Source of the DNA: a virus
Virus record (IMG/VR): IMGVR_UViG_3300042566_001051
Span: 1-64,000 of that record
Reading direction: 5' to 3' (one strand)
Length of the DNA: 64,000 bases
Positions 1 to 42,146 of this stretch are shown piece after piece (position 1 is the stretch's first letter; every line of letters begins with the position of its first letter). The notes under the pieces were generated by a model. It made no database searches. It worked only from the letters and a program-made list of their open reading frames with translations, and was not told where the DNA came from. The position numbers and the translations under genes are program-made.

Positions 1-1
1 A

Positions 2-115
2 TTACACCTTTGCGAGGCGGCCGCCGATGCCCGAGCCCGAGTGCGACGCGGCGTTGGCGACGTCGAGAAAGAACAGGCCGGCGATCGCGCCGTAGCCCCA
101 ACCGCCGCCGTGGTA
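2..115 (-). other. Putative DGR variable region (VR)
   Basis: Fits the TR-type pattern GG-N-W-N-N-G-A-N-AGLF-Y-L-N-V-N-N-A-A-S-N-S-N-S-N-I-GGRL, with NNY codons at every predicted Asn/Tyr position. No TR in the window. Confidence 0.65.
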
Positions 116-2569
116 GGCAACGCACGATGCGCCACTGTAGAAAATGTCAGGGAATGTCGCGCTGGCGGCAGATGCGTTCGTCGTCTCCGGCGTGAATACC
201 GTACCAAGGTCGTAATCCGTTCCGGTGGTTGTCGCCATCGTTACCGGATACGTGCCGCTTGTTGGGGCGGTCAGCGAGCTCGTCTTGTAGGTCTTGTTGC
301 CGTTCTTGTCCCACACCATGAACTTGGAACTGGCGTCAGTTTGCAGGCCGTCGACCATCTGCCAGACGTTGCCCCAGAGGCCAACGATGCCGCGCCAGGT
401 GGCTTGCGCCACGGTAGCGTTATCGACGGCCAGCGCGGACGAGCCGGACACATGGCCTTGGCCGACCAGCGTCTGGCTATCGGAGCCGCCAATTTCGATC
501 AGCGCCAGGGTTTGGATCGCCGAAAGCTGGTAGATATTCCACAGGCCAAAGCCGGTGACGCCGCCGGTGTTGCGGTTGTTGGCGCGGGTCTGCATGGTCG
601 GGAAGTCGATGGAGACCAAAGGCGTATTTCCAGCGACGGAGCCGAGCTTGGTGCCGCCGTCGTTCGTGCCTTGGTACTTGCCCACCCAGAACTGGTCGAT
701 CTGCGCGCCGGCATTCATGAAGGCCGGATGCACGCTGAAGCCGGAGACGGGCTGGTCGGAAACCATCCAGTAGCGCTTGCCGGCATAGGTGCCAGACGGG
801 ACGGTGCCGGTCTTCAGGTAATACTTCGGCACCTTCATCATGGCCTGGCCGTCGATGGTCTGCGCAACCACGCCGGCATAGGTCGGGTGGTTGTTGAAGG
901 TCGCGGCCGTGGTCGTGATTGCGTTGAAATTCTCGTCGATGCGCTGCCAGGTGCCCGCGCCGCCGCCGGTGGCCGTGCAGACGATGCCGATGATCTGGGC
1001 GAACTGCTGCTTGGTTGTGAAGGCGATGTCGGACGACCACTCGGATGCGCCCAGACTGGTGCCGGTGTGGCGGACGCGCATCACGTACTGGGTCTGACCT
1101 GCAACCAGGACGCCGGCGGGAACCGTGTAGCTGGTCTTGGCCGTGGTGCTGGCGCCGGAATCGTGCAGCGGTGCCGCCCAGGAGCCGGACGCAAGTCGAA
1201 TCTGCCACTGGCTGGATGCGTGCGTGTCGGTGCCGCCGGTCGTGGCAAAGGCGGAGGATTGCAGCGTCGGCTGTTCCGGGATTTCGGTCTGGCCGTTGGT
1301 CGGCGTGGTGACGGTCGGCGTATTGACGTAGGCGTAGGTCGCCTTGGTCGTGAAGCTGGTGATCGTCGCCCAGTCGGACACAAGGCCGGCAACGTCCTTG
1401 ACGCGAGCGCGGACGTAGAAGGTGGTATTGACGGCAAGCACGCCGGCCGGAACCGAGTAGGTCATAGCCGACTTTTCGCCGGAGTCGTGCAGGACGCTGG
1501 CAAAGGTGCTGCTGGTGCTGATCTGGAACTGCGCCGTGGCGAAGGCATTGCCGGCCGGGCTGACGTAGTTCGAAGCGGTCAGCGTCGGCGTCTCGATGAC
1601 GTTGGTCGCGCCGGTGGCCGGGCTGCTGATCGTGGGCGCGTTCGGGCGCATGAGCGGATTGACGTAGCCGCCCTGCTCAGTACCGCCGCCGAGAGCGACG
1701 ATGTGCTTGATAACCATCGGCTCGCCATCGACCACCATGCGCAGATAGCCATCGCCGCGCATGGGCACGACGTATTCGTAGTCGGCGAAGCCTTCCGGCA
1801 CGCCGCTGGTGCCGCCGCCGGAACGACGAACCGACCAGGCGCGCTCAGTCCATGCCGTGGTGTAGGCGTCGCGGAAATACAGGCGGGCCTCACCGGCATT
1901 CAGGCTTCGGCGAATGACGACGGCGCGGGACGTGTTGTTGTCACCCAGGTTGAGAGCGCGAGACACCCACTGGCCGCCGATGGCGCCATCGACGCCGCCT
2001 TCGGGCCGTGCAACGAGCGTGGAGCCGGTCAGCTTGGCGCCGGCGCCCCAGTTGCGGGACAGGTTGGCCGCCAGGCGCAGGCGAGTACCGGAGTGAATCG
2101 CGGTGATCCGCACCAGGGCGGTATCGGTCGCATCGGACAGAAGGTAGTCTTCGCCGACTTTCACGCCGCTGGTATCGGCGATGTCCAGGGAGTCGTCGCC
2201 CATGATGCCGCTGGTGACGGAAACGCCCAGGTGGTTTTGCAGGTTGTAGCCGGCCGCGAAAAGCTCGAAGGCGATGCGGCGATTGCGGTACAGCCAGTCC
2301 AGGGTGACGGCATTCTGTACCGACGTGGGCGATGCCAGGCCGTTCAGGGTGCCGGAAATGCCGCCGATCTGGGTAACGATGGCGTTGATCGTCTCGGACA
2401 GGTTCGGCTTTCCGGCGCGGGCGGCCTCGATTTCGGATTCGATGGCCTCGGCGCGGTTGTCCAGGTTATCGAAATTCTCGTCGATTTCCTGGTAGCGCAC
2501 GTTCCAAAGGGACGGAACGGCATCCGGTTCATTGTTCGGGATGGGGGTGATACTGGGGTTAGGCAACAT
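2..2569 (-). CDS. Tail fibre/receptor-binding protein with two Ig/FN3-like repeats and a C-terminal CLec (Mtd/FGE-like) domain; probable DGR target
   Basis: Lies after the baseplate genes; internal repeats PTISSPATG.../PTVTTPTNG...; GLWGNVWQMVDG motif; ends GGGWGYGAIAGLFFLDVANAASHSGSGIGGRLAKV. Confidence 0.85.
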   Translation of the reverse strand: MLPNPSITPIPNNEPDAVPSLWNVRYQEIDENFDNLDNRAEAIESEIEAARAGKPNLSETINAIVTQIGGISGTLNGLASPTSVQNAVTLDWLYRNRRIAFELFAAGYNLQNHLGVSVTSGIMGDDSLDIADTSGVKVGEDYLLSDATDTALVRITAIHSGTRLRLAANLSRNWGAGAKLTGSTLVARPEGGVDGAIGGQWVSRALNLGDNNTSRAVVIRRSLNAGEARLYFRDAYTTAWTERAWSVRRSGGGTSGVPEGFADYEYVVPMRGDGYLRMVVDGEPMVIKHIVALGGGTEQGGYVNPLMRPNAPTISSPATGATNVIETPTLTASNYVSPAGNAFATAQFQISTSSTFASVLHDSGEKSAMTYSVPAGVLAVNTTFYVRARVKDVAGLVSDWATITSFTTKATYAYVNTPTVTTPTNGQTEIPEQPTLQSSAFATTGGTDTHASSQWQIRLASGSWAAPLHDSGASTTAKTSYTVPAGVLVAGQTQYVMRVRHTGTSLGASEWSSDIAFTTKQQFAQIIGIVCTATGGGAGTWQRIDENFNAITTTAATFNNHPTYAGVVAQTIDGQAMMKVPKYYLKTGTVPSGTYAGKRYWMVSDQPVSGFSVHPAFMNAGAQIDQFWVGKYQGTNDGGTKLGSVAGNTPLVSIDFPTMQTRANNRNTGGVTGFGLWNIYQLSAIQTLALIEIGGSDSQTLVGQGHVSGSSALAVDNATVAQATWRGIVGLWGNVWQMVDGLQTDASSKFMVWDKNGNKTYKTSSLTAPTSGTYPVTMATTTGTDYDLGTVFTPETTNASAASATFPDIFYSGASCVAYHGGGWGYGAIAGLFFLDVANAASHSGSGIGGRLAKV

Positions 2570-2968: not shown

Positions 2969-4228
2969 CTACTCCTTGATGATTTCGAACTCGAAAGCCG
3001 GGTTTCTGGGGCCGCCGAGCTTCCATTGACCGGAAAGAGTCAGCCGGGCAGGCTTCGGTGGCAACATGACGGCAGGCTTGTGATCGTGGATTCTGAACTC
3101 GCCAAAACGCGGATAAACGGTCATTTTCCGGCTACGGAGCCGGCGCCCGTCTAGGCTGAAATGCCCGATCTGATAGGCGCCGCCGACCGTCCATGTGCCA
3201 TCAAGGCGGCGAATGCGCTCAAAAAGCGTCGTTGGCGGGTCAGGAATGAAATACTCTGGCTCAGGATCGGCGGGGATCGTTTCGACTCGCCACACCAGCG
3301 TATCGCCGGTTATTTCAACGTCAGCAAGGCCACTCGCCCGGCAACTCTTCAGGCGCCAATCGACCTTTCCGCCCTCCAGCTTCCCGAGCTTGAACGTGCC
3401 GAAATGACTTGGGAGGCGCGCCGGCTCGCCGTCGATACCCAACTTCCATCGGCCATCGTTCGCCTCGGTGATAACCCGACCGCACCACGGGTAGCGAATC
3501 GGTATGGTCTTGTCCATCGCCAGCGCGTAGCCCATCGAAACGGATATGCCAAAGGCAATGCGCAGCCAGAACCGGAACACGGGAAGCAGGCGCGCCGGGA
3601 TGACCGAGCGGATGATGTGGATCAGGCTGGCAATCGAGCGAGTATTGACGCTGAAATCCAGCGAAATAAGGATTCGACTGGTCAGGAACATCCCGGCGGT
3701 ATTCACCTTGCGGTTGGCCCGGCTTTCATCGGCGCCGACAATGCGCCGTCCAAGCCCCCAGGAGCCGTCCAGCTTCACGCCATCCTCGCCGACTTGATGC
3801 AGCCACCACGCGAAGCTTGGTTTCGTGGTGTAGAGCGCCGTCGGGTACGGGCTTTCCTTGTCGTGCCAAAGCTGTTCCACCTCGCATTCGTTGGGGAACA
3901 GCATTTGCAGGTAGGTGCGCAGGAAATGCAGGCCACGCCCCTGAACGTCGCCAGACTTCCAGGCCCGGTACAGGTAACGCGTTGCCGCCTCTTCACGGTC
4001 GCCTTGCAGTAGCACCAGACCGTCGGTATTGACCGCCTTGCGCACCAGATCAAGGGAGCCAAGATGCGCAGCACCAAGGACGTTCGCGTCGAACGAGTCT
4101 CCCGCAAGGTTGGCCCCGAACAGATCGAGGAATAGCTTCTTCAGGTCGGCCTCAACCTCGTTTTCGGCAAAGCTGCCTTCGAGGGGGCTTAGTCGCGGAA
4201 GTTGGGCGTTTTGGAAGTCAAGAGACAT
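2969..4228 (-). CDS. Baseplate wedge protein (P1 gp16 position)
   Basis: RGLHFLRTYLQML motif, LDGSW repeats; lies between the baseplate-J-like gene and the fibre genes. Confidence 0.6.
   Translation of the reverse strand: MSLDFQNAQLPRLSPLEGSFAENEVEADLKKLFLDLFGANLAGDSFDANVLGAAHLGSLDLVRKAVNTDGLVLLQGDREEAATRYLYRAWKSGDVQGRGLHFLRTYLQMLFPNECEVEQLWHDKESPYPTALYTTKPSFAWWLHQVGEDGVKLDGSWGLGRRIVGADESRANRKVNTAGMFLTSRILISLDFSVNTRSIASLIHIIRSVIPARLLPVFRFWLRIAFGISVSMGYALAMDKTIPIRYPWCGRVITEANDGRWKLGIDGEPARLPSHFGTFKLGKLEGGKVDWRLKSCRASGLADVEITGDTLVWRVETIPADPEPEYFIPDPPTTLFERIRRLDGTWTVGGAYQIGHFSLDGRRLRSRKMTVYPRFGEFRIHDHKPAVMLPPKPARLTLSGQWKLGGPRNPAFEFEIIKE
3090..3130 (-). promoter_or_regulatory. Putative late promoter (CGGAAAA-N28-CAGAAT) for tail collar/fibre genes
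   Basis: Same motif and spacing as seven other sites; inside the 3' end of the upstream gene. Confidence 0.45.
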
Positions 4229-6032: not shown

Positions 6033-6074
6033 ATCCTATGGGGCTGGCAACGTCTGGCGACGCGGGTTTTTCCG
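6033..6074 (-). promoter_or_regulatory. Putative late promoter (CGGAAAA-N29-TAGGAT), likely leaderless
   Basis: Intergenic; -10 hexamer 6 nt before the ATG at 6026. Confidence 0.65.
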
Positions 6075-12302: not shown

Positions 12303-12344
12303 AGGGTAGCGCGGCGGGATTGCCCGATTCCCGCCCGTTTTCCG
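12303..12344 (-). promoter_or_regulatory. Putative late promoter (CGGAAAA-N29-TACCCT) for portal
   Basis: Intergenic copy of the shared motif. Confidence 0.6.
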
Positions 12345-13327: not shown

Positions 13328-13942
13328 ATGACTGCAACAGCACTCGTGCCCGTCTTCACCAGCACTATCCAGAATCAACCCGCCCAGCTTTGCAATGCCC
13401 GCGACCTGCACGCCTTCCTTGATGTCGGCCGTGACTTCGCCACCTGGATCAAGGATCGAATCGCCGAATACGGCTTTTCAGAGAATGATGACTACTTTCT
13501 GATTGATTCCCCGAAACGGGGGAATCAAAAAAGCCGTGGCGGAGACCGGCGCAGCAAGGATTACCACCTGACTCTGGACATGGCGAAGGAACTGGCAATG
13601 GTCGAACGCAACGAGAAAGGCCGGCAGGTTCGCCGCTACTTCATCGAATGCGAGCGCCGGGCATTGGCCGCCGTCCCGCCAGCGCCGACTTTGCCGAAGT
13701 CCGGCCTTGGCCGCTCGCTGCGGGAGGAAATCCGGCAGGCCGTGGCCGAAGCGGTGGGGGCCGAACTGCCGAAGCTGACCGCGCCGCTCTACAGCCTCAA
13801 GAATGTCTGGGCGCACCTGTCCGCCGGAAATGGCATGTACATCGACAGCGACACCCTCGCCGAGATTGCCAGCGACTGCAATGCGAAACTCGCCAGTCGG
13901 GCGGCGTTCTATCAGCAACGGGCGCTGGCGGCGAGGCATTGA
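13328..13942 (+). CDS. AntA/AntB-family antirepressor
   Basis: CNARDLHAFLDVGRDFATWIKDRIAEYGF...DYHLTLDMAKELAMVERNEKGRQVRRYFIECE; RBS AGGAG. Confidence 0.92.
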   Translation: MTATALVPVFTSTIQNQPAQLCNARDLHAFLDVGRDFATWIKDRIAEYGFSENDDYFLIDSPKRGNQKSRGGDRRSKDYHLTLDMAKELAMVERNEKGRQVRRYFIECERRALAAVPPAPTLPKSGLGRSLREEIRQAVAEAVGAELPKLTAPLYSLKNVWAHLSAGNGMYIDSDTLAEIASDCNAKLASRAAFYQQRALAARH

Positions 13943-13944
13943 AA

Positions 13945-14478
13945 ATGGCACAGAAAACCGAGTTGACCGCAGCATTGCTCCGGGAACTGTTCGACTACGG
14001 TACTGACACCGGCCTTTTCACGCGCAAGGTCAGCACGACCAACCGCGTGAAGGTTGGTGACGTAGCCGGCGCCAAAAACCAGAAGGGCTACATCAACATC
14101 ATGGTTTGCGGCAGGCTTCACCCGGCGCACCGTCTGGCGTGGCTGTACGTGCATGGGGTCTGGCCGCAAGGCCAGATTGACCATATCAACGGCATCCGGG
14201 ACGACAACCGCATCGGTAATTTGCGGGAAGCAACCAATGCCCAGAACAAGCAGAACATGCGAGCGGCACGGTCGGACAGCAAAACCGGCCTGCTCGGCGT
14301 CCGTTGGAATGATCGGCACCAGTGCTGGCAGTCCCGGATCATGGTGGATGGCAAGGGGCGGCATCTGGGCAACTTCGGCACCGCAGAGGACGCCCATGCC
14401 GCCTACCTGTCAGCCAAGCGCGAACTTCACGAATTCGGCGAAATCGCCAAGGCCGGGGCTTCCATGTCGGCATCGTAG
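13945..14478 (+). CDS. HNH-AP2 homing endonuclease
   Basis: AHRLAWLYVHG...IDHINGIRDDNRIGNLR; AP2-like C-terminus. Confidence 0.92.
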   Translation: MAQKTELTAALLRELFDYGTDTGLFTRKVSTTNRVKVGDVAGAKNQKGYINIMVCGRLHPAHRLAWLYVHGVWPQGQIDHINGIRDDNRIGNLREATNAQNKQNMRAARSDSKTGLLGVRWNDRHQCWQSRIMVDGKGRHLGNFGTAEDAHAAYLSAKRELHEFGEIAKAGASMSAS

Positions 14479-14858
14479 AGCGTCCAGAATTCTCCGCTCT
14501 CGCCGTCGAGCATGAATTTGTTGGTGTAGATCATCTGGGTGCGCAGGTACTCGGTGCGGAACTCATCGGCGGCGATGAGCGTTTCGACATCGGTTTCGCC
14601 CCGGTATTCCTTGGCAATCAGCGGGTCGGACTGGTCGCCAAGGTTGTACCCGTTCCGGTTCATGACTTCCTTGAGGGCAAACCAAAACGGCCCGTAATCT
14701 CGATACCTCGGCGGATCGACGCGCAACCGCTCGGCAACAACGCCCAAGCCAAACGCCAGGAGATTGGAAAACCCCCGGTTGGCCCGGAGGTTTGCGGAGC
14801 GCTCCGCGACGAGCGCCTTGAGCATTTCCTTGTCGAACTTGTATTCAGTGAAGGCCAT
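14427..14858 (-). CDS. ulx: Ulx-like antirestriction accessory head protein
   Basis: YRDYGPFWFALK and TLIAA motifs as recalled for P1 Ulx; directly downstream of darB as in P1. Confidence 0.75.
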   Translation of the reverse strand: MAFTEYKFDKEMLKALVAERSANLRANRGFSNLLAFGLGVVAERLRVDPPRYRDYGPFWFALKEVMNRNGYNLGDQSDPLIAKEYRGETDVETLIAADEFRTEYLRTQMIYTNKFMLDGESGEFWTLYDADMEAPALAISPNS

Positions 14859-14868
14859 GATTCATTCC

Positions 14869-17800
14869 TCAAATTGAACGGGTTGCGTCGGCAAGCTCAA
14901 GCTGCTCGGCTGCCCTTGGATAGGTGCTGACGAGATAATCCCACGTCGAGCGATAGACGTTCCATACCAGTGCATCGCCGTCCCACTTGAACTTGCCAAA
15001 GCCGGCCAGGTTCGCGCAGTTCTTGATGGTCTCCTTCCACGGCTTGGTATTGCCCTTGATGCCCACCACGTCGGTAGGAAGATTTCCCTTCGGTGCGGAG
15101 CCGGACAGTGCCTTGCTCACGGCCGCCTCGATGGCCGACTTGTAGGCCCAAGGAAGGTAGTCGCTGGCTGGGTCTTTGCCCTTATAGTCGAACCATGACG
15201 CAGCGCCCTGCATGAACGATGCGGCCTGCTCACGAATCTCAGGCTCGGACTCGCCAGTTAAGGCGGCCTTCAAGTTGTCGAGCGATACCGTCTTCTCGAT
15301 CTGCTTCTGCAACCAGATGTCGAAGTCGTCGAAATCTGCAATGGTCAGCTTTACGCCCGTTGCGGCAGCGTACTCACGCAGCGCGTCAAACTTCGATTCG
15401 CTGCTGCTGCCATGCTGCCGGCGCTCAACCGCCAGGCTGCTTGATACTACGAAGCTGCCGGAATCGAAAGACTTGATAACGCTCGCCTGGGAATCGAAGA
15501 TGCTGCGCATGGCCGGCGTCTTGTCGGCATCGTTCGGCAGAATCACGAATGGGAAATGCGGCTGCGGAAGCTGGTACTCATGGGCGCTGTAGGCCGCAAT
15601 GGCTTCAACCTTGCGGCGTTGCGCGACTTCCGGCACGACCTTGTTGAAACCGTTTTCGACAGTACCCCCCTCGTTGATCCGGTCTTCAATCTCAGCCGCC
15701 TCAGTGATGCAGGCATCGTACTCTGCGGAGCCCTGGTAAATCCACTCGCCGGCCATGATGTCGCGGTCGGCCAGTGGCGAACCGTCACGGCTTCGGCCAA
15801 AGGCTCCAGGGCGGCCATTGACCAGCGTCAGCACGGCCAAGCCGGAGCCAAGCCGGACGAATGCGCCATGCAGGAGCGGCTTGCCGTTATAGACGATGCC
15901 GTTCCCGTTGGCGATGGCGTCCGCCACGGCCGCCGGATAGGCGCCAGACTCTTCGGCCTGACGGAAGAAGCTGGACTTCGATTCATCGATCATGGATTTC
16001 GCCATATCGACCTCGGACTGCCATTCGTTGGAGATCGTGCCTCCATCGATGGCATCAATGCCGAAGGTCGGCCAAATCTTGCCCAACAGCATGGACTCGA
16101 TGTCGTCATCCTTTTGCTTTTTGCCGCCGCGCACAGCAGTAAAGAAGCTATCCAGGGAGACGGTTTCCTTGCTCTGCCCGCCGGCGCGCCACTCGCTGCG
16201 ATAAATGGTCGCGGAGCCTTCAATCTGGCGGCGAAGTCCGCCGATGCTTGCCATCAATTCAGCCAGCAGGCTTTCGTTCTTGGCAACAGCCGTTGCCGTG
16301 GCCTTCGGGTTGTTGATCCGGTCGCGCAGCATGCCGGCCTGCTTCTCCATGTTCCACAGGCCGATGATCTTGCGGATGATGAAATTCGCCGGCGTCGGGT
16401 TCTCGCTCAGGAAAGCATTCTGCTTGCGGATGGTGTCGATGTTAATCATCTGCCGGTCGCGGTTGCTTGATGCGCGCGAAGCTGCCTCCTTTGCGGCGAT
16501 GGTTTCCTGCATGCGGCGCATTGCGTCAGCATCGCCTACAACGTCGATCAGGGCCTCCATCTGCTCCTTCGACAGGCCGCCGGTGACGGCAACGCTATCG
16601 GAACCATTCACATCCATAACCTGGCTGATCCAGTCGGCTTTCTTGTTCACCATTGCACGCTTGCTGGTGTCAAAGGTTCCGTCGGCATCGTAGTAGTAGA
16701 GGCTGACGCGCGCCGTCTTATTGCCCTGGCGGACGCCGCGCCCATTGCGCTGCTCCAGGCTATCTGGCGTCCATCCGATGGTCAGATGGTGGATAGCCTG
16801 CGTTCCCTTCTGGAGGTTGATGCCGACCTCTGCCTTCTCGTTGGCGATCACGACGCGGTACTTGTTGTCCTCGCCGCCGGCGTTGAACCCGTCCTGCACC
16901 GCCATGATTTCATCGGGTGCATTGTTGGTCTTGCCGGTGATGACAGCCACGGCGCCAGACGGCACGCCGGCGCGCTTCGAAAGAAGGCGCTTGATCTTGT
17001 TATGCAGCGGCAGGATGTCGCAAAACACGATCTGCTTGACGATGGGCGACTTGCCGCCGCTCTCGTCAATTCCGCGCGGCGTGGCTTGTTCGTGCTGGAA
17101 GTTCTCCAGCATGGCGGCCAGTTTCGGAGGGACGGAGACATCCAGGTCAAGGCCAAGTTTTTCGGCGATGGCTTCGAATGCGCTCTGGGTATCTGGGTCG
17201 ATGGTGTCAATCGCAACCCGGTTTCCATCGATCGCCTTGGCGCGAACCTCGATCTTCAGGAGCTCGCTCTCATTTCCTGCGGCGTCCTTGGTGGTCTTAC
17301 GGCCAACAATGGCGCTCTCATCGGTCATTGGCGACGGGCGCGGACGGTCTTCGCTGAACCGCTTGGCGTTGAACTGCTCAATGGCTGCCTTTGCCTTGTC
17401 TGCCTGGGCTGCAATGAAACTGTAGAAGGTGGCGCGCTGGTCAAGCTCAGGGTCGGCGATCAACAGCGTCATCTTGTTGATGAGGTTGAACGGGTGCCCG
17501 ACCAGTGCCATTTCCTCGCCGAAGTGGCGCGAGACTTCATCGAATGCGCCCTTGTCTCCACGGTTCGGCGACTTCTCGGAGATTTCGTCAATGGCCCAGC
17601 GGAAAGCGCCCTTGTAGAGCTTCAGGCGATCAACGATGTCCTTGGGAAGCGTCACCGGTGTAGCCTTCTCTTCGCGGTCAGGAACAACAATCTGCTCGCC
17701 GACATCCTCTGCTGAACGGATGGTGAAGGCGCTCGAAAGCGCCTTGCGCAGCACGCCGACGTTGTTGAGGCCGACGAACACGTCCGTGGTGCGAGCTACG

Positions 17801-20800
17801 CCGTCCATTGTCACGTCGTCCTGGTTCTCCTTGGCGCACATCATTTCCATGAAGTTGTCGGCGCCCTTGATACCAAGGCACATGTCATTGACGCGCTCAT
17901 GCCCAATGGCCAGCGACAGCATGGCGTAGATTTCCAGCGGGCTATTGGTGATCGGCGTGGCGGTCAGCATCAGGACGCCATCCTTCAGTTCCGACTTTCC
18001 ACGGATGAGCCAGGATTTGGCCTGGGCATCAATGCCGCGCTTCGATGCCGGAGACAAGGAAAGGAACTTGGCGGCCTTGAAATCGACGGTCTGGGCGGAA
18101 TTCTTGAAGACATGCGCCTCGTCGAACACGATGCTATCGACGCCCATGTCTTCAAGATATGGGGCGCTGCCGCTCTTGTTTGACAGGAAGGAAAGAAGTC
18201 CGGCCTGCTTGCCCTTGGCGCGCTCGTCCTCCTTCTTGTCCTCGCTCTCGGCAAAGCTGGCGTCAGCCTTGCGCATGAACTGCTCATAGGAGGCGATGGT
18301 TTCGTCTCGCAGTCGGATGCGCTCGAACGCTTCCAGTGTCATGAAAATCTTGCTGTGCCGGTTCTCCATGACGGCCGTCAGGTCGGCGTCGAAGTTCGAC
18401 GAGCTCACAACCGGTTTTCCGCCCTTGCCTTCGCGCAGGCCGACAAACAGGCAGTCGTCGGTTGAAGAATAGGCGCGCATGGCCTCCTTGCGCCAGTTGG
18501 ACAGCACGGAATTGGGAACCACGAAGAGCGTCTTGGTCTTGACGCCGATGCTCTGGGCGTATTGAACCGCAACCAGTCCCTGGAAGGTCTTGCCAAGCCC
18601 TACGCCATCGCCGTTGCCGCCACCAAATTCGCGGCCTTGCAAGCGGACAAATGCGTTTTGGTAGCCATGCAGCTTGAGTTCAGGGTTAAGGCCAGGAACC
18701 GGCAACGGCGATTCGTCGCTGACAGAGCGGAAGCGCAGCTTCTCGGGGTCGGATGCGACACTTTCCAGTCGGCTCACAATGGCGCGATTGCCGCGCACCC
18801 AGCCGTTGAACTGCTCGTTGGCGGTATTGACCATCTTGCGCAGCTCCTGGAGCGCCTTGGCATCATCCATGCCAAGTTTGGCGCCGCCAAGCGTAATGGT
18901 GCCGTTCTTCAGGTAGTCTCCGATGCGGTTCAGCAGCTTCTCGCGGTCGGTCAGCTTGCTGCCAGGAACATCAATATCGACGCGCTTTTCGCCAGTCTTC
19001 TCGTCATAGATGACAGAGGCAGACGGATGCACGAAACGGCGAAGGAATTCCGCCTTCTCTTCCAGTGTGACGTGAGGACTGAACAGGTTGAAGGTCAGCT
19101 TCGACACATCAACCTTGTCGATTCGGGCGGCGGCGTCCAGCTTCTGGCGCAGCAGCTTGGCCCGGATTTTCTCGTCGGTTGCTGCGGCGATGTCGGCGTC
19201 GGCGCGCTTCAGGAAGTCGGCGTAGTTGCCGACGTAATAGTCATCGGCGCGGGTGACGCTCTTCCCGTCAGGGGAGACGCACCAGGCCGGGTCTTCGTAT
19301 GGCTCGAATCCATCGCCATAGATGGCCTTGGCCTCGTCCATGCCGGCCCAGATGGATTTCGTTTTGTAGCGCAGCCCCTCGAAGCTGGAATCTGCCGTGA
19401 TTTCGACGGTTGGCGCCTGCTGCTGCACATCGCCACGCCACACGGCGGAGAACCCGGTTTTCTTCTGGTAGTGGTTGCCGATTGTGGCGAGCCCCTCCTT
19501 AACCTTCCCGCCAAGCACGGACGGCCGCTTTTTCGCGGCCACGGATACGCGCTGCATGGCGTCGGTCAGGGCGGGATATTCCTCGGCGAAATTGACGCCG
19601 ATTTCCTCGCCAAGTCGCTCTTCCAGGACTTGGGCGACTGACATCCCAACAATCCCGGCATTCCAAAACTGTGCGCGCTCGCCGGCGTCCTTCAGTCGGC
19701 GGATTTCGGCCATTGCGCCGCGTAGCCACGCCGGTATGTCGAGAGATTGCGAAGTCTCGATCATGTAATCGACGCACTTTTCAGCCTCGATCCAGGTGAC
19801 GCGGCTCTCAAAGGCGGAATACGGCGTCTTCAGCTTCCCGACCAGTTCGGCGGCGTCCGCGCTTTCCTCGCTGCGCATCATGGGCACCCAGCGGCCGCCC
19901 TGCATCTGAAGCGTCTGGCCGGACTGGGTGATCGTATCGCCATCGCGGTAAATGATCGGCGTGGTTTCAACCGTGCCCAGCAAGTCCCAATTCACTCTGG
20001 AATCAGGGAAGCGCTTCAGCATCTTGCCGATTTCTCCGACGCTGGCCTGAGTGATGACGCGATCCACGTCGCGGAACTTGTTCGGGTCTTTTGGAACGAA
20101 GTCGCCCAGCACGAATCGCTTTCCTTCGCCGTCGAAGTAACGGCCCTCGATGAACGGCTGCCATTGCACATTGGCATCGATCAGGGATTGCGGCGACTGC
20201 TCGCGCAATTCGGCGATCTTATCCAGGGTCTCGCGGCTGTACTTGCGGAAAGCAATCACGTCGGTCATGGTGTCGGCGCTTGCTGTGCCGAATACCGCGT
20301 TTGGCAGCCGGTAGGCGCCAAGGAATTCAGCCGCGTAGCTCGCCTTGACGCGCAATTCCTCTTCCTTGCCGCCCTTGCCGGAGACGCAGCGCGGCGGCGT
20401 GATGAAAACAGCCAGGCCGCCAGGCTTCAGCTTCTCCAGGGAGCGCAGAATGAAGTAGTTTTGCAGCGGCTCCTTCTGGTAGCGGTTGTCGTGCAACTGG
20501 TTGCCGCCTCGATCTGCGACGCCGCCAAACGGAACATTTGTCACGATGGCGTCGTATTGCTCGTCCGGCGTTCCGGCTGCCACCTTCTCGAAAGGGGCAA
20601 CAGTAGCCGTATAGCCTGGGCCTGCATTCACCAGTCCATTTATTCGGCCTGATGTCTCGTTGAGCTCCACGGCGTCAATAGCCGCGCTCAGTGGCGCCGT
20701 AGCGCCGAAAATGCCAACGCCAGCGCACGGGTCAAGCACCTTGCCGCCCTGAAAGCCAAGCTCTGACATCAATTCCCAAACGCCCTCGGCAATCGGCTTC

Positions 20801-21300
20801 GGGGTGTAATACTCGTAGGCGCTGCCCTTCTTGCCGTCGGCCCCGACCAGCGCGCCGCCTGTACCGGAATACTTCGCAAGCGCCAGCTTTTCCTCTGGCG
20901 TCAGCCGGGACGGATCAATCTCGCCGGAATCGATGCGCGACAAAAGAGACATCGCGGCCGCGTTGTCCTTCTTGCGCTGGGCTGGCTTGCGGTTCGGGTC
21001 GAATTCGTAATACTGCGCCGTCTGGTTGCGCGGCGCCTGCGGCTCTTCGCCGCCTTCCTGCCGCTGTGAAACCGGTTCCGCGCGGGCGGCATTGGCGCCA
21101 AGATCGACGCGAATCTGGTTGGCTCTGGACGCCAGTTTCAGGCGTTTGACGGAGGCCAGCGGGCCGTCGCCGACATCCTTCAGGCCAACCTTGATCTTGG
21201 CAAGTTCGCCGACCAGCTTCAGGCGGGCCAGCAGCCCGCCGCTTCCGACGGCATCATCAAAGGCGATTCGATTCAGCATTTCTCGTTCTTCCTCATGCAA
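14869..21300 (-). CDS. darB: DarB-like antirestriction protein (N6-adenine MTase plus SNF2-type helicase)
   Basis: EYYTP, VLDPCAGVG, TNVPF (MTase); VGLGKT, DEAH, LTATPITNSPLE, EQRNGRGVRQGN (helicase); 2143 aa. Confidence 0.9.
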   Translation of the reverse strand: MHEEEREMLNRIAFDDAVGSGGLLARLKLVGELAKIKVGLKDVGDGPLASVKRLKLASRANQIRVDLGANAARAEPVSQRQEGGEEPQAPRNQTAQYYEFDPNRKPAQRKKDNAAAMSLLSRIDSGEIDPSRLTPEEKLALAKYSGTGGALVGADGKKGSAYEYYTPKPIAEGVWELMSELGFQGGKVLDPCAGVGIFGATAPLSAAIDAVELNETSGRINGLVNAGPGYTATVAPFEKVAAGTPDEQYDAIVTNVPFGGVADRGGNQLHDNRYQKEPLQNYFILRSLEKLKPGGLAVFITPPRCVSGKGGKEEELRVKASYAAEFLGAYRLPNAVFGTASADTMTDVIAFRKYSRETLDKIAELREQSPQSLIDANVQWQPFIEGRYFDGEGKRFVLGDFVPKDPNKFRDVDRVITQASVGEIGKMLKRFPDSRVNWDLLGTVETTPIIYRDGDTITQSGQTLQMQGGRWVPMMRSEESADAAELVGKLKTPYSAFESRVTWIEAEKCVDYMIETSQSLDIPAWLRGAMAEIRRLKDAGERAQFWNAGIVGMSVAQVLEERLGEEIGVNFAEEYPALTDAMQRVSVAAKKRPSVLGGKVKEGLATIGNHYQKKTGFSAVWRGDVQQQAPTVEITADSSFEGLRYKTKSIWAGMDEAKAIYGDGFEPYEDPAWCVSPDGKSVTRADDYYVGNYADFLKRADADIAAATDEKIRAKLLRQKLDAAARIDKVDVSKLTFNLFSPHVTLEEKAEFLRRFVHPSASVIYDEKTGEKRVDIDVPGSKLTDREKLLNRIGDYLKNGTITLGGAKLGMDDAKALQELRKMVNTANEQFNGWVRGNRAIVSRLESVASDPEKLRFRSVSDESPLPVPGLNPELKLHGYQNAFVRLQGREFGGGNGDGVGLGKTFQGLVAVQYAQSIGVKTKTLFVVPNSVLSNWRKEAMRAYSSTDDCLFVGLREGKGGKPVVSSSNFDADLTAVMENRHSKIFMTLEAFERIRLRDETIASYEQFMRKADASFAESEDKKEDERAKGKQAGLLSFLSNKSGSAPYLEDMGVDSIVFDEAHVFKNSAQTVDFKAAKFLSLSPASKRGIDAQAKSWLIRGKSELKDGVLMLTATPITNSPLEIYAMLSLAIGHERVNDMCLGIKGADNFMEMMCAKENQDDVTMDGVARTTDVFVGLNNVGVLRKALSSAFTIRSAEDVGEQIVVPDREEKATPVTLPKDIVDRLKLYKGAFRWAIDEISEKSPNRGDKGAFDEVSRHFGEEMALVGHPFNLINKMTLLIADPELDQRATFYSFIAAQADKAKAAIEQFNAKRFSEDRPRPSPMTDESAIVGRKTTKDAAGNESELLKIEVRAKAIDGNRVAIDTIDPDTQSAFEAIAEKLGLDLDVSVPPKLAAMLENFQHEQATPRGIDESGGKSPIVKQIVFCDILPLHNKIKRLLSKRAGVPSGAVAVITGKTNNAPDEIMAVQDGFNAGGEDNKYRVVIANEKAEVGINLQKGTQAIHHLTIGWTPDSLEQRNGRGVRQGNKTARVSLYYYDADGTFDTSKRAMVNKKADWISQVMDVNGSDSVAVTGGLSKEQMEALIDVVGDADAMRRMQETIAAKEAASRASSNRDRQMINIDTIRKQNAFLSENPTPANFIIRKIIGLWNMEKQAGMLRDRINNPKATATAVAKNESLLAELMASIGGLRRQIEGSATIYRSEWRAGGQSKETVSLDSFFTAVRGGKKQKDDDIESMLLGKIWPTFGIDAIDGGTISNEWQSEVDMAKSMIDESKSSFFRQAEESGAYPAAVADAIANGNGIVYNGKPLLHGAFVRLGSGLAVLTLVNGRPGAFGRSRDGSPLADRDIMAGEWIYQGSAEYDACITEAAEIEDRINEGGTVENGFNKVVPEVAQRRKVEAIAAYSAHEYQLPQPHFPFVILPNDADKTPAMRSIFDSQASVIKSFDSGSFVVSSSLAVERRQHGSSSESKFDALREYAAATGVKLTIADFDDFDIWLQKQIEKTVSLDNLKAALTGESEPEIREQAASFMQGAASWFDYKGKDPASDYLPWAYKSAIEAAVSKALSGSAPKGNLPTDVVGIKGNTKPWKETIKNCANLAGFGKFKWDGDALVWNVYRSTWDYLVSTYPRAAEQLELADATRSI

Positions 21301-24300
21301 GTTCAGCGGTGGCGGCCATCATGGCGTTCTGGTAGGCACTCACGGCCTGCTCGAACAGGCTGACAAGCGCGGGGTCGGTTTGCTGGCGGTAATAGGCGGC
21401 CTCCAGTGAGTCGGCCAGTTCAGGCGCAAGAATGTCAGGGACGTTGCCGTCGATCACGGACTGGAACAGCGCCTGGTCTGCTTGCTTTTGCCGGTCTTCG
21501 GGCGAAGCTTCTGGCGCGGCCTCCTGCGTAGCGGGCTCGCCCTTGCTCTTGATCTGACCGATGGTCTTTGGCGAGAAGTGGAAATCAAGCTCAACGCCGG
21601 CGCTGATGAGTTCTTCGATGCTGATGTAGCCAAGCTCGCCGCCATAACCCAAGTCAGCCAAGCCGAAAGCCTGCTGGGTGCCTTTGCCTTCCATGTCCTT
21701 TTCGGTGATGTACCAGTCAGCGGCACCCCTGAAGTAGTGGAGGTGCGCTACAGCAGAATCTCCCATTCCGTCCTGGTCGTAGGTCTTGGGCATGGCGGCG
21801 ATGACGCCGGCCAGTTCTTTCATCTTGTCCGCGAAGAACTGCCATTCTTCGCCCATGAGTCCGGCGATCACGGCCTTGTTCTGACCTTCCGACATCCAGA
21901 CGTTCATGCCGGTATCGGTCAGCATCTTGAGCGCGGACGCGCGATCTTTTGCCGGTCCTTCAATCGCCTCGGGCACCGCGTTCGCTGCCTTGGTGGAAAA
22001 TAGGGCGTCAATCATCGCTGCTGCATCCTCATCGGAATAGGTTGCCTCCGTGCCGGATGGGAATACGACGCGCTGGTCGCCGGACGCGCCGACGAACACC
22101 ATTGCCTTGCCGTCGCCGCCAATGTCGATACGCCCAACCACTTCTCCGCCCTTCTTGACTTTGCCGACATAGCCGTCGGAATCAACGCCGTCGAGCGAGA
22201 CGGAATCGAAGCCGTCGCGTGGCTGGTTGTCGATATGCGGATACTTGGCTTTCATTTCAGGCGTGCGCAGCAGGTTCCGCGCGCCGGTATGGCGAATGCG
22301 CTTGGTCAGGTAGTCGCTGATGGTGCGAGCGTCGTGGGCATAGTCAGCCAGGCGCTTGTCCTGCTCCGGCGTCAGATCGGGAATGCCGGCCTTGCGGTTG
22401 ATGGCGATGTCGATAAGGCTGCGCAAGCGGCGCTTGGCCTCTTCCTTGTCCATGACATCGCCGGCCGCCGTCCATCCGTATGCCGATTCAGGAACCTTCG
22501 CAAACTTGGCGTCCGATGCGATGAAGTCGCGGAAATACTGGAGCAATGCCTTGGTCGCGGAAATGGCCTGCTTTTCGACGCCAAGGTAGGCGCCGTCGGC
22601 GCTGTCCAGGGTCGCGGATTCCGCCTCGAACAGCCCGCCAATTTCCTCTTCGCTCGGGCCGTAGTCAGCCTCGGAAAGGATTCCGATGGCCTCCTTGATG
22701 CTGTCGGAGACTTCGGCCTCAAGGTTGGCCTGGCCGATATTCCCCTCGGCGCGATTGATCGGCTCGTTGGTGGCAACAACATCAAGCGCGCGCTCAAGCT
22801 CGGCAACGGCAGCGCCTACGCCGTCCAGCGCCGCACCGGAGAACATCCCCCAATCGACACTGGCGCCGTTACGCTGGGCCGCTTGATCCATTTCCTTGGC
22901 TGTGACGAACGGGGAGTATTCTGGCTTGTCCAGGTAGTCGGCGAGCCACGCCTTGAATTCGTCCGTTGCGCTGGCGAACTGATAGGCCGCATCAACACTC
23001 ACTGCCTTGTCTCCGTCCGCATTTCCGACTGGTTCAATGGCGCCGACTGATTCAAGCGCTTTGCGCAGTCCGCCGAATGCCATTGCCGCCTTCAGGAAGC
23101 CGTTGAAGCTGCGGTTGTTGACGTAGCGGAGCGCGCTCCCCTTCTTCATGCCGTAGATCGTTGCTGCGCCCTTCTTGCCGGTGCCGGCCTCGTCGTATCC
23201 TTCGGCAAACTGGCGCAACAGGTACTGCTGCCCATCAACCACGTCGGCGCCGTCTCGCACCTTCATGCTCTTCAGCCAGCCCCAGGAATCCCTGACGCCT
23301 TCCTCAGCCTTGCGAGCCTGCCACGCCGCATCTTTAGCGGCCTCAATCTCGGCGCGCTTCTCGGCTGTGATGCCAGCCCATTCGTCGATCTGCTTGGCGC
23401 GCTCCTTCTGAGTCTTTGCCAGCTTGAAGCCTGCCGCCCGTTCGAAAATCTCCATGCTGGCCTTGTTGCTGTCGCTGCCAACGCCGGCCAGGATGCTGCG
23501 CAGCGCCTCGGCGTCCTTTTCATTGACGGCGGTGACGACGCGGGAAACCCAGTCGCTACGCTGCCCCATGTCGATGCCGTGCTTGCGATAGATGGCGCGG
23601 GCCGCGTCTTCAAGTGAAGCGTCTTCAGGAAGGGCTGCAAGCTCCGCCTTGCCTGCCTCGATCAGTTTTTCCTTGGCGATGGCTTGAATCTTGTCCATTG
23701 CCTCGCGGTAGGCATCCATTGCCTTGCTTTGTGCCTGGAATTCCTCGGTTTCAGTGACACCAGACAGGCGGGAATCCCATGTCTTCATGCCGGCCGCCTC
23801 CAGAGCATCGCGGGCCTTGATAATCGGCCGTTCGCTGTTGGCGGCGCTTTGCAGCTTCTGGATTTCTGCCGTCGCGCTGGCGTTGTCGACGATCCCTTCC
23901 CAATTCACGGCAGCCACGGCGGCATTGACCATCGCCGCCTCTTCTCCCCACGCCTTGATGTAGGCGTCGATCAGGGCCTGTTCGTTTGAAGCAGGGGCGC
24001 CTTCTGCCTGAAGCGGCGGGAGCCCAAACCCCTCGCGCCAGCGGTTCTCGTTCTGCTCCTTGTCTCCAATCTTGGTTATCGCGGCATAGCTGCGCTCCAT
24101 GTCTTCGATCATGCTTGCCTTGGTATCGCTCTTGAACCCTGCTCCGTTGCCGTCAGCGGGGTTCATCTCCTTGCCGTTTTCCAAGACGCGAACGCCCCAT
24201 ACCCGCTGTTTCCCTTGCCTGATCTTGACGGCGAAAGCTTGGAATTTGACGGAGCCGACAGAGAACACATCGGGCGACTCATCCTGTTCGCCGGATTTCT

Positions 24301-26011
24301 GTGTCAGTTCGGCCAGCAGGGCGTCATCATCGGCTGCGGTCAGCGTGCTGGTGTCCTCGGCCACGGTGTATCCGGCCTTGCGCAGTTGCTCAATGGTTGG
24401 CTCGGCATGTGCTGCCAGCACCTTGCCGCCCTCGGCTCCCGGTGTGGCATTGATGATGTTCCACGCCTTTTCGCCTTCCGGCGTGTCCGGGAAGAACGAC
24501 GTAAAGAGGCCGTCGGCGCTGTTGCGATAGGTGATGTCGGGCTTCTGCTGCGCAGACTTTGCGGAGGCTTCCGGCACGACAGAGGCAATAGCCTTTTCAA
24601 CGTCATCCGGGTGGTTTTCAAGAATCTTGTCGATGGCAGCAAATCGGCCTAGCTTCAGGGTAACAACCGTCACCAGCGACGGGCTTGCGCCGACTTGCGT
24701 GATCTGCTCGTCAGTCATGCCTTCGAGGATGGCGCGAGCCGCTTCCTCTCGCTTGGCAAGTGCAGCCTGCTCTTCGTCCGTCAGCAGTGTGCGGGCCGGC
24801 GCAGTCTCAGCGGCCACTTTTGCCACTTCGAGTTCATGCTGCGCCGTCGCCAACTCGGTTTCCAGCGTGGTGATTTCATCCTTCAGCGCCTGGATTCCCT
24901 GCATGCGCTCCGCGCGCTTGGTGTTGGCGCGCTGGAATGCCGGGCTGTTTTTCTCGGCAAGCCGAATGATGCGGCGTGCAACTTCGCGGACATTGAGGTC
25001 TTCGCCGCGCTCGGGCGCCACAACGATGGTGATGTCCTTCTTGTTCAGGAGCCACTTCCACGAGATAACCTCATCACTCGCCGCCATCTTGTTCGGCGTC
25101 ACGTCCGGGTTGTGGAAGAAGATCGAAACGGTTTGGCCGTCGGATAGCTCGAAAATGGCTGCCACGTTGGCGACGCCGCGCTGCTTGAATGGCTCGGTAA
25201 CCTGCATGGCAACCGGCTTGACGGACTCGCCAGAGCGAACCATGACGCCCTGTAGAACCTCCATCTTCCGCTCCAGCTTGGCGTATGGCGTCACCAGTGC
25301 ATCAAACGCCAGGGCGCCGTCGGCGTCTTCAATGATGTCCTTGGCGCTCACAGCGTCCAGCAATAGGCTTTCGCCAGCGTCTGATCGCCGGATTTCGTAC
25401 AGCACTTGGTCAAGGGTCTGGTCGTAGGGCAGCGCTTCGCTGTTCCATTGCACTTTGCGGGTCATGGTTTCGAGTCCTTCGTGAGGGAGATTTTCAGCAC
25501 GCAGCGGCCGGCGCATGTCTCCATTCTTGAGCCACCACTTGAGTTGAGAAACGGATAGGGAAACGACGCTGGCGAGGCCATTCCAGCCGCGCTCGTAACT
25601 GTCCAGGTAGGCGCGCCGCGCGGACTCTTCGTCCGGGTAAGCAAGCATCACCTTGTGCTCGTCGAACTTTCCGCCGACGTTCTGGTTGATGACGAATGCC
25701 GCCTGGGATTGGGGGTAGAAGCCGATGAAGCAATCAACGCAGTCGCCGTCGTTGCCTTTTGTGCCGTTGATGTAGCCGTAGTGGGCCGCCATCCGGCTTG
25801 CCCAGCGCTTTCCGGTCTTGGAATCGATCCCGGTTCGATAGCTGCCGCGCGGCTGCTCGATGGCAATGGCCAGGCCGTAGATGTTGGCCCGGCCTACCTT
25901 GTAATTTCCAGAGAGGCATTGCGCCTCGGTCGGCGCCGGAATCGGGTTATCCCCGAAGGCGCCGCCGTGGGCGGCAGTCTCGATCTGAAGGAAGGTGGAA
26001 TCGGCGCTCAT
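21293..26011 (-). CDS. darA: DarA-like polyvalent internal head protein
   Basis: N-terminal pyrophosphatase-like domain (GNYKVG...HYGYINGTKGNDGD...DEHKVM), DarA-N motif FELSDGQTVSIFFH, DUF2958-like LHYF...DWYITE...GELGYIS, DarA-like C-terminus. Confidence 0.8.
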   Translation of the reverse strand: MSADSTFLQIETAAHGGAFGDNPIPAPTEAQCLSGNYKVGRANIYGLAIAIEQPRGSYRTGIDSKTGKRWASRMAAHYGYINGTKGNDGDCVDCFIGFYPQSQAAFVINQNVGGKFDEHKVMLAYPDEESARRAYLDSYERGWNGLASVVSLSVSQLKWWLKNGDMRRPLRAENLPHEGLETMTRKVQWNSEALPYDQTLDQVLYEIRRSDAGESLLLDAVSAKDIIEDADGALAFDALVTPYAKLERKMEVLQGVMVRSGESVKPVAMQVTEPFKQRGVANVAAIFELSDGQTVSIFFHNPDVTPNKMAASDEVISWKWLLNKKDITIVVAPERGEDLNVREVARRIIRLAEKNSPAFQRANTKRAERMQGIQALKDEITTLETELATAQHELEVAKVAAETAPARTLLTDEEQAALAKREEAARAILEGMTDEQITQVGASPSLVTVVTLKLGRFAAIDKILENHPDDVEKAIASVVPEASAKSAQQKPDITYRNSADGLFTSFFPDTPEGEKAWNIINATPGAEGGKVLAAHAEPTIEQLRKAGYTVAEDTSTLTAADDDALLAELTQKSGEQDESPDVFSVGSVKFQAFAVKIRQGKQRVWGVRVLENGKEMNPADGNGAGFKSDTKASMIEDMERSYAAITKIGDKEQNENRWREGFGLPPLQAEGAPASNEQALIDAYIKAWGEEAAMVNAAVAAVNWEGIVDNASATAEIQKLQSAANSERPIIKARDALEAAGMKTWDSRLSGVTETEEFQAQSKAMDAYREAMDKIQAIAKEKLIEAGKAELAALPEDASLEDAARAIYRKHGIDMGQRSDWVSRVVTAVNEKDAEALRSILAGVGSDSNKASMEIFERAAGFKLAKTQKERAKQIDEWAGITAEKRAEIEAAKDAAWQARKAEEGVRDSWGWLKSMKVRDGADVVDGQQYLLRQFAEGYDEAGTGKKGAATIYGMKKGSALRYVNNRSFNGFLKAAMAFGGLRKALESVGAIEPVGNADGDKAVSVDAAYQFASATDEFKAWLADYLDKPEYSPFVTAKEMDQAAQRNGASVDWGMFSGAALDGVGAAVAELERALDVVATNEPINRAEGNIGQANLEAEVSDSIKEAIGILSEADYGPSEEEIGGLFEAESATLDSADGAYLGVEKQAISATKALLQYFRDFIASDAKFAKVPESAYGWTAAGDVMDKEEAKRRLRSLIDIAINRKAGIPDLTPEQDKRLADYAHDARTISDYLTKRIRHTGARNLLRTPEMKAKYPHIDNQPRDGFDSVSLDGVDSDGYVGKVKKGGEVVGRIDIGGDGKAMVFVGASGDQRVVFPSGTEATYSDEDAAAMIDALFSTKAANAVPEAIEGPAKDRASALKMLTDTGMNVWMSEGQNKAVIAGLMGEEWQFFADKMKELAGVIAAMPKTYDQDGMGDSAVAHLHYFRGAADWYITEKDMEGKGTQQAFGLADLGYGGELGYISIEELISAGVELDFHFSPKTIGQIKSKGEPATQEAAPEASPEDRQKQADQALFQSVIDGNVPDILAPELADSLEAAYYRQQTDPALVSLFEQAVSAYQNAMMAATAELA

Positions 26012-26018
26012 GCACGGC

Positions 26019-26060
26019 ATGGTATGCCGCGCGCAACAGCCCGATTGGCGAGGTTTTCCG
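26019..26060 (-). promoter_or_regulatory. Putative late promoter (CGGAAAA-N29-TACCAT) for darA-darB-ulx
   Basis: Intergenic copy; ATG at 26011 is 7 nt downstream of the -10. Confidence 0.65.
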
Positions 26061-26061
26061 C

Positions 26062-26553
26062 TTACGCAGCGGCGGTTTTGACCGCTGTCAGTCCAGATAT
26101 TTCGGAGCGGACGGCGGCAATCGCCGACTTCAGTGCGTCGCGCTTGTCGGTGAGAACCTGCTCCATTTTTGGCGCTGCCGTGCGGATGCCGGCGGGAGGC
26201 TTCACCTTGGCCGCTGCAAGAATCTTCTGGAACTTCGAGCGGCCGGCATCCATCGCCTGAACAATCTCAGCGATAGCCTTGACGTGATCGTCCTGATTCT
26301 TGATTGGCAGCACCTTGCCGTTCAGCAGCACTTGGAAAATGTCGCCGCTCTGCTTGATGCGCAGCACGACGGTCTGGGAGTCGGCAAAGGTGAGCGCCAT
26401 TTCGCGGTAGGTGACGCCGGATGATCGCTTGAGCGCGGACGGGATGTCCTGCTGCACGACGTTGGCGCCGGCGCGCGAGAAGTAGCGGATGGCTTGCTTG
26501 GCCGCCTTATCCTTGGCCGTCAGGTCTTCGAAGCTGAAAAGTAGATTCTTCAT
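26062..26553 (-). CDS. hdf: Hdf-like protein (DarA N-terminal family)
   Basis: LTFADSQTVVLRIKQSGDIFQVLLNGKVLP resembles the DarA-N motif; directly upstream of darA as in P1. Confidence 0.65.
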   Translation of the reverse strand: MKNLLFSFEDLTAKDKAAKQAIRYFSRAGANVVQQDIPSALKRSSGVTYREMALTFADSQTVVLRIKQSGDIFQVLLNGKVLPIKNQDDHVKAIAEIVQAMDAGRSKFQKILAAAKVKPPAGIRTAAPKMEQVLTDKRDALKSAIAAVRSEISGLTAVKTAAA

Positions 26554-31699: not shown

Positions 31700-31741
31700 A
31701 ATATAGGGCGAGACTAGACGCCAGATTCGTGAGGTTTTCCG
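31700..31741 (-). promoter_or_regulatory. Putative late promoter (CGGAAAA-N29-TATATT) upstream of the lysis cassette
   Basis: Shared motif and spacing. Confidence 0.55.
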
Positions 31742-37834: not shown

Positions 37835-37875
37835 ATTCTGAAAGGCTGAAAACTGACCAAACGGGGCTTTTTCCG
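37835..37875 (-). promoter_or_regulatory. Putative late promoter (CGGAAAA-N28-CAGAAT) for the capsid operon
   Basis: Intergenic copy of the shared motif. Confidence 0.65.
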
Positions 37876-42104: not shown

Positions 42105-42146
42105 AATCTTCGCACTCCACTACATGCCAATCATTGCCATTTTCCG
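42105..42146 (-). promoter_or_regulatory. Putative late promoter (CGGAAAA-N29-AAGATT) for the protease operon
   Basis: Shared motif overlapping the HNH 3' end; -10 is weak. Confidence 0.45.

Follow-up and report, generated by a model that had tools for sequence, protein, structure and literature searches.

We analysed a 64,000-nt stretch of viral DNA (the window), which makes up bases 1-64000 of the 75,125-base IMG/VR virus record IMGVR_UViG_3300042566_001051 and which begins with the end of a predicted tail-fibre gene read from the minus strand. The last codons of this gene, at window 9-112 on the minus strand, are very probably the variable repeat (VR) of a complete diversity-generating retroelement (DGR) of the type known from phage BPP-1, which diversifies the lectin-fold end of the fibre. 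An initial annotation of the window had suspected such a region at the fibre end, and the suspicion is borne out by the mismatches of this repeat (VR1) to a template repeat (TR), all of which fall on TR adenines, together with a reverse transcriptase (RT) gene and an Avd gene in the same genome. The parts of the target are as follows, in window coordinates:

2-2569, minus strand (stop codon 2-4): tail-fibre gene, DGR target 1; an 855-residue open reading frame (ORF) matching phrog_5302, 'tail protein', at 5e-33
9-112, minus strand: VR1, the 104-nt variable repeat, delimited by comparison with the TR
359-373, minus strand: GNVWQ motif of the lectin/formylglycine-generating enzyme (FGE) type of fold, residues 733-737
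5-1012, minus strand: C-terminal receptor-binding domain with a predicted C-type-lectin/FGE-like fold, residues 520-855, from an AlphaFold2 model

VR1 comprises the last 35 codons ahead of a final GTG TAA and encodes residues 819-853 of the 855. The codon string that the initial annotation had quoted is present there, at the end of the 855-residue ORF, and the GNVWQ motif that it had read as a mark of the C-type-lectin (CLec) fold does stand at residues 733-737, where N, V, W and Q show little or no variation across an alignment of 55 sequences.

The remainder of the element was found by closing the record on itself. Window 1-163 matches record 74963-75125 (98% over 163 nt, with 3 mismatches), and because the two ends of the record overlap in this way the genome is, on sequence evidence, a circle of ~74,962 bp; the DNA to the left of window position 1 is therefore record 74962 downwards. 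The circular junction was confirmed by three independent assemblies (L010, L036 and L014), in which homology passes from the fibre gene into record 75086..72130. The record itself is classed as 'linear', with 85% completeness, probably because DGR-variable mismatches in the terminal overlap defeated the detection of an exact terminal repeat; in practical terms, it was VR heterogeneity that left the overlap imperfect. A search of window 1-420 against the whole record returned four further matches, which include the following, in record coordinates:

73497-73599, same orientation: 85% identity
66420-66540, opposite orientation: 88% identity
66132-66210: a 79-nt match of the GNVWQ region

Down the minus strand past the fibre stop codon, the order is a 193-residue ORF, a 116-residue ORF, Avd, TR, a 160-nt spacer and RT, again in record coordinates:

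74305-74886, minus strand: 193-residue ORF, phrog_2618, with a good ribosome-binding site
73974-74324, minus strand: 116-residue ORF, phrog_34710
73634-74152, minus strand: Avd (PF22296, 7e-23; phrog_3206; NCBIfam NF033474, 92 bits)
73497-73600, minus strand: TR of 104 nt with 27 adenines, from alignment to VR1 and to the repeat of a second target (VR2)
72285-73337, minus strand: RT of 350 residues (PF00078, 1.4e-21; phrog_1423, 1e-124) with VGALTSQ and YMDD

The initial annotation had predicted that an avd gene, a near-copy of the fibre end and an RT would lie to the left of position 1, and all three were recovered across the junction: an Avd scoring 92 bits against the NF033474 cut-off of 80, a 104-nt TR at 73497-73600 differing from VR1 at adenines only, and an RT supported by its Pfam and PHROG matches and its two motifs. 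A Pfam RVT_1 search of the record returned a single RT (72516-73124, minus strand), whose frame is open and whose catalytic motifs are retained, and the Avd is likewise intact. DGR RTs carry the signatures [I/L/V]GxxxSQ in motif 4 and a catalytic YxDD, and from its RT domain, YMDD and VGALTSQ the enzyme adjoining the TR is predicted to be of the DGR type. Its nearest relatives in the phage collection were the RTs of Vibrio, Bacillus, Aeromonas and other phages, at ~40-45% identity.

The strongest evidence comes from the repeats themselves. Aligning VR1 (window 112..9), VR2 (record 66429-66532, plus strand) and the TR (record 73600..73497) in the sense of the fibre gene revealed that all 16 mismatches between VR1 and TR sit on TR adenines (hypergeometric P ~6e-11), as do all 14 between VR2 and TR (P ~3e-9), with a pattern unlike that of VR1. 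By codon position, the TR adenines number 14, 12 and 1 at first, second and third positions, and the codons that carry them are ten AAY together with AGC, TAT, ACG and ATC; adenine changes placed in this way therefore never create a stop codon. The theoretical repertoire is ~1e13 variants, or 9.8e12 when the first codon, CAC in every VR, is excluded. An earlier count of 11 variable codons, all of the form NNY, needs correcting on this comparison, which gives 13-14 variable codons, one of them (TCG, from TR codon ACG) not NNY.

Pfam and NCBIfam scans of both target proteins returned no lectin or FGE-sulfatase match, and the fold was therefore taken from a predicted model. An alignment of 55 relatives, drawn from the window, related loci and database matches, was used for an AlphaFold2 model of fibre residues 520-855, which had a mean predicted local distance difference test (pLDDT) of 96.8 and a predicted template-modelling score (pTM) of 0.95. 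Foldseek against the PDB placed first the DGR variable protein TaqVP of Thermus aquaticus (5vf4; E 2.5e-14, template-modelling score ~0.56-0.58, 18% identity), followed by PvdO (5hha, E 7e-4), then by five variants of BPP-1 Mtd (1yu1-1yu4 at E ~1e-3 and 1yu0 at 2e-3) and Treponema TvpA (2y3c, E ~1e-3), and after these by FGEs. The CLec fold call thus finds support at the level of predicted structure, the best PDB match being itself a DGR variable protein, although TaqVP differs from the protein studied here in being cellular rather than a phage fibre.

Signals of the kind expected for homing are also present. Homology between VR and TR stops at ...CGCAAA, and the preceding ~19 nt are GC-rich and without variation. 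The 3' end of the VR, the final two codons, the stop codon and the next ~58 nt are common to both targets except for one base and are absent after the TR; the shared ~58 nt contain a small hairpin and a GC-rich hairpin, the latter at these record positions:

74910-74935, minus strand: GC hairpin after VR1
66568-66593: GC hairpin after VR2

The GC-rich last ~19 nt of VR1 and the ~20 nt behind them are presumably the initiation of mutagenic homing (IMH) site. The GC stem is maintained in 13 related sequences, with both-sided (compensatory) changes at two stem pairs, and the second targets of four related proviruses have matching hairpins with further stem variants; the hairpin of target 1 has no T-run behind it. 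BPP-1 and many other DGRs have an IMH unlike IMH*, as well as a GC inverted repeat that occurs after the VR only (PMC5758913), and by this analogy the IMH and hairpin may work here as they do in BPP-1.

On the same analogy, the TR and its 3' spacer would be transcribed, and the RT with Avd would copy the TR RNA to complementary DNA while misincorporating opposite template adenines. This complementary DNA would then replace the VR, guided by the GC-rich invariant 3' end, the IMH and the downstream GC hairpin, and the TR would stay unchanged because it is without the IMH tail and the hairpin. Since variation is confined to the final ~35 residues of the lectin domain at the fibre tip, the phage would be expected to change its receptor specificity, and the same TR would also feed the second, non-adjacent target.

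Whether relatives vary as this mechanism would have them vary was evaluated across related loci. Ten IMG/VR loci with fibres 47-94% identical to this one possess their own VR/TR pairs, with 9-14 mismatches at adenine sites and 0-2 elsewhere. When fibres sharing 88-95% DNA identity are compared, 26 VR columns vary, and 22 of these coincide with TR adenines; of the four that do not, columns 37 and 48 track differences in the relative's own TR, and the remaining two reflect genuine VR/TR differences at non-adenine positions, in L010 and L014. The adenine-specific variation among close homologues that had been proposed as a check is therefore seen. The close relatives L010, L011 and L014 have a TR 97-100% identical to this one, and their VRs all differ; L011, with an identical TR, and L010, with a TR one base off, have quite different VRs.

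Within the record, the copies of VR1 at the two ends are identical except at window 97, 102 and 103, each a TR-adenine position, and this suggests that the element may still be mutating its target in this population. The phage is found in lake-water, wastewater and bioreactor runs (24 listed runs from 11 studies, with 60-72% of sampled sequence words found in wastewater runs of several studies), and its lineage includes a prophage in Gulbenkiania mobilis DSM 18507. A range of samples this wide makes strain mixtures plausible, and it is possible, though we consider it unlikely, that the three differences came from two co-assembled strains rather than from DGR activity inside a single population. 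Against this, the remaining 160 bases of the overlap show no mismatch, each of the three differences sits on a TR adenine, and even a mixture would still mark variation that a DGR had made.

A reading on which the element is a fossil, with old VR/TR differences and a fibre no longer being diversified, appears less probable still. It would agree with the Logan contig of the lake-water run that is the probable source of the record, which shows a single VR1 variant, that of the window start, alongside an invariant TR; and the four sequencing runs were examined as assembled contigs, not reads, with contigs breaking at VR1 and VR2, where the repeats share words. Against this stand the open RT frame with its catalytic motifs, the intact Avd, a TR that has kept its 27 adenines and near-identity among the three close relatives while the VRs differ, the IMH and hairpin maintained at both targets, and one assembly holding two VR1 variants that differ at TR-adenine sites only.

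Codon usage provided the first hint of the element and, taken by itself, is only suggestive. A caution given at the outset, that NNC codons are common at this GC content, was well placed, since 66.5% of the codons in the fibre gene are NNY and 55% are NNC; a 105-nt segment over the VR holds 10 adenines, half the gene-wide median of 20 and the ninth lowest count of 821 such segments, a weak signal unable to settle the presence of a DGR without the remaining element. That this adenine-poor, NNC-rich gene end reflects GC-driven codon bias with no retroelement, as the gene-wide figures alone would allow, is refuted by the TR, RT, Avd and adenine-only mismatches and has next to no chance of being right.

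Several points weigh against a DGR acting on a receptor-binding fibre, and we set them together here. A few non-adenine VR/TR differences are present in relatives, and the case for ongoing mutagenesis in this population hangs on three bases of an assembly overlap. The target domain goes unrecognized by Pfam and NCBIfam, such that its fold assignment depends on a predicted structure, and the receptor-binding role that we propose for the 855-residue protein rests on synteny and one PHROG 'tail protein' family. With these points weighed, a complete BPP-1-type DGR diversifying the fibre end remains the explanation that we strongly favour.

The element possesses a second target, with these features in record coordinates:

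65556-66539, plus strand: target 2, a 327-residue stand-alone lectin-fold protein that carries VR2
66429-66532, plus strand: VR2

Target 2 begins most likely at an ATG (L008:3556) with AAGGAG ahead of it, which gives the 327 residues, and is 50% identical to target 1 in protein sequence over 334 residues. It corresponds to the receptor-binding domain of the fibre only, without the N-terminal shaft, and lies ~7 kb from the TR on the other strand. Its neighbours are of the early or recombination type, with ssb and a terminator-like hairpin before it and a dUTPase after it. The hairpin, followed by a T-run, falls between ssb and target 2 (L008:3505-3540, record 65505-65540), and target 2 may therefore be its own transcription unit; no late-promoter-like motif of the kind described below was found within ~660 nt upstream of it.

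A database search revealed a family of 'hypothetical' proteins of ~320-330 residues related to target 2, with members in Bordetella hinzii, Castellaniella and Eoetvoesiella among others. Both targets occur in three related proviruses and in the Gulbenkiania mobilis genome, and in these four genomes each VR differs from the local TR solely at adenines or has no more than 2 further mismatches. The fibre is the sole target in a 67-kb relative that has direct terminal repeats. It is possible, though we hold it with little confidence, that target 2 is a separately expressed binder sharing the TR, such as an exchangeable docking fibre tip or a non-virion protein of the lysogen. In that event, the two-state S/S' switch of P1 would have given way, in this integrating lineage related to P1, to two independently hypermutated binders, and either way the conserved target 2 provides a workable system in which to ask why a phage DGR should diversify two proteins.

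The targets stand on opposite strands in the genome of the window and in the three proviruses. In the Gulbenkiania mobilis contig (L048, 133.6 kb; L053, 104.2 kb), they are on the same strand, ~29 kb apart, a layout that may reflect a rearrangement or a second prophage. Contig joints that seemed to place sequences on opposite strands were considered as signs of an inversion and rejected, as they arise from the homology between the GNVWQ regions of targets 1 and 2.

Phage DGRs with two targets, or with a non-adjacent one, have been described before (PMC5758913, PMC10743442): non-adjacent second targets within 50 kb are common in phage-associated DGRs and 13% of DGRs have two targets (PMC5758913), and the gut phages nd4 and nd12 have two-target DGRs with 'tentaclins' (PMC10743442). 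As in nd4 and nd12, one TR serves two lectin-fold targets in a single phage genome, but the second target here is the shaft-less domain of the fibre rather than an N-terminal lectin followed by Ig domains, and it sits among ssb and dUTPase genes on the opposite strand.

The likeness to the BPP-1 DGR (mtd-avd-TR-brt; features as given in PMC5758913) extends to the order of target, Avd, TR and RT on one strand, a VR at the 3' end of a C-type-lectin tail-fibre gene, an AAY-rich TR with adenine-only mismatches, a GC-rich invariant VR end with a GC inverted repeat behind it, and a repertoire of the same order. The carrier differs, being a ~75-kb myovirus with P1-type virion genes where BPP-1 is a ~42-kb podovirus, and the element here also has the 193- and 116-residue ORFs between target and Avd, a second non-adjacent target, an RT no more than ~45% identical to any in the phage collection, and a target whose predicted fold is nearer to TaqVP than to Mtd. 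As every feature tested is that of a textbook DGR, what we describe is a known mechanism in a new carrier and not a new mechanism. No specific account of a DGR in P1-like or Punavirus phages emerged from a literature search.

That carrier appears from its genes to be a temperate, integrating myovirus of Betaproteobacteria that is distantly P1-like. PHROG scans identified portal, sheath, tube, baseplate and terminase genes as well as families named after P1 (PmgB-like, PmgG-like, DarB-like with 2143 residues, Hdf-like and Ulx-like), and a 498-residue baseplate protein is 23% identical to BplA of P1, P7 and RCS47 (E 3e-14). A P1-type virion module accompanied by Dar, Hdf and Ulx genes is thus indicated at the level of remote homology. 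A tblastn search with the sheath found no P1 record, and one with the fibre against the phage collection gave weak partial matches only, none of them in P1, with no detectable similarity to P1 S. The description of the phage as a P1-like myophage accordingly holds for remote homology, through BplA and the PHROG families, and fails for the fibre and for the lifestyle, since the phage integrates.

The order of genes also matches that of P1. On the P1 map, the order is pmgA-bplA-16-R-S-U-U'-Sv'-cin, and here it is a 96-residue ORF, the BplA-like gene, ORFs of 419 and 126 residues, the fibre, the 193- and 116-residue ORFs, avd, TR and RT. The 855-residue fibre gene holds the place of P1 gene S, behind the BplA-like gene and this gene at the R position:

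2585-2965 of the window, minus strand: small tail gene of 126 residues, P1 gene R position, immediately upstream of the fibre; phrog_5417 and the tail collar fibre family phrog_1780

A search for the resolvase/invertase domain PF00239 found none in the 75-kb record, with the control positive in 13 of 14 genomes. It is reasonable to say that the DGR holds the slot of the P1 invertible segment and cin, a statement about position and not proof of replacement. The proposal that mutagenic retrohoming replaces the Cin/cix inversion of P1 is in this respect a reasonable reading of position, the matching gene order and the lack of an invertase domain in the record agreeing with it. Like the P1 C segment (Sc / Sv-U / U'-Sv' / cin, cix), the DGR lies directly behind R-S-U-type fibre genes and would yield a varied distal tail-fibre end; unlike it, it would do so by reverse transcription and adenine mutagenesis rather than two-state site-specific inversion, with ~1e13 variants against two in P1 and on a fibre dissimilar to P1 S. 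Two unrelated devices for varying host range would thus share one module slot.

Among cultured phages the closest is Xanthomonas phage Rb1 (PQ569993), whose sheath and baseplate are 68% and 67% identical. Rb1 has baseplate, small tail gene, fibre and an ORF of ~200 residues in the same order; it differs in a fibre of 540 residues with a downstream ORF and then a large serine recombinase, and over the 25 kb of Rb1 examined around the fibre the annotation lists neither avd nor RT.

Integration is supported by a P4-type tyrosine integrase, accompanied by an excisionase-like gene:

70601-71833 of the record, minus strand: P4-type tyrosine integrase

Relatives are found inside chromosomal contigs of 169-271 kb from Burkholderiaceae, Gulbenkiania, Alcaligenaceae and others. 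Homology to one of these, L036, ends ~155 nt past the RT stop codon (record ~71834-72130 region), and the attachment site is therefore probably between RT and the integrase, with the DGR at the extreme end of the prophage once integrated. A search near this presumed site in L036, in L037 and in the last 13 kb of the record found no tRNA gene. The plasmid-prophage lifestyle of P1 does not seem to be shared, as judged from the integrase and the chromosomal relatives, partition and RepA genes not having been searched for.

With this phage, a myovirus lineage of Betaproteobacteria that integrates and is related to P1 joins the known carriers of tail-fibre DGRs. The case also indicates that a DGR variable region can be recognized from just its codon composition and a lectin motif, here with TR and RT outside the window.

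Further features of the genome lie away from the retroelement. The motif CGGAAAA-N26-30-ANNNT occurs 10 times in the window, where 2.7 would be expected, and none of 100 shuffles reached 10. The copies are mostly upstream of late genes, in a layout that recalls the late promoters of P1, and include, in window coordinates:

3090-3130, minus strand: late-promoter-like motif upstream of the R-position gene and the fibre
6033-6074, 12303-12344, 26019-26060, 29395-29435, 31700-31741, 37835-37875 and 42105-42146, minus strand: further late-promoter-like copies

At window 14427-26553 on the minus strand, Hdf-like (163 residues), 1575-residue multi-domain, DarB-like (2143 residues) and Ulx-like (143 residues) genes are contiguous and form a consolidated Dar-type antirestriction block, in which the 1575-residue protein has a transglycosylase-like N-terminus. 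Between target 2 and the integrase lie the dUTPase (66620-67057) and a C5 cytosine DNA methyltransferase of 639 residues (67890-69809, plus strand). Two paralogous HNH endonuclease genes, at window 13648-14478 and 59631-60188, both on the plus strand, each match phrog_99 at ~7e-67.

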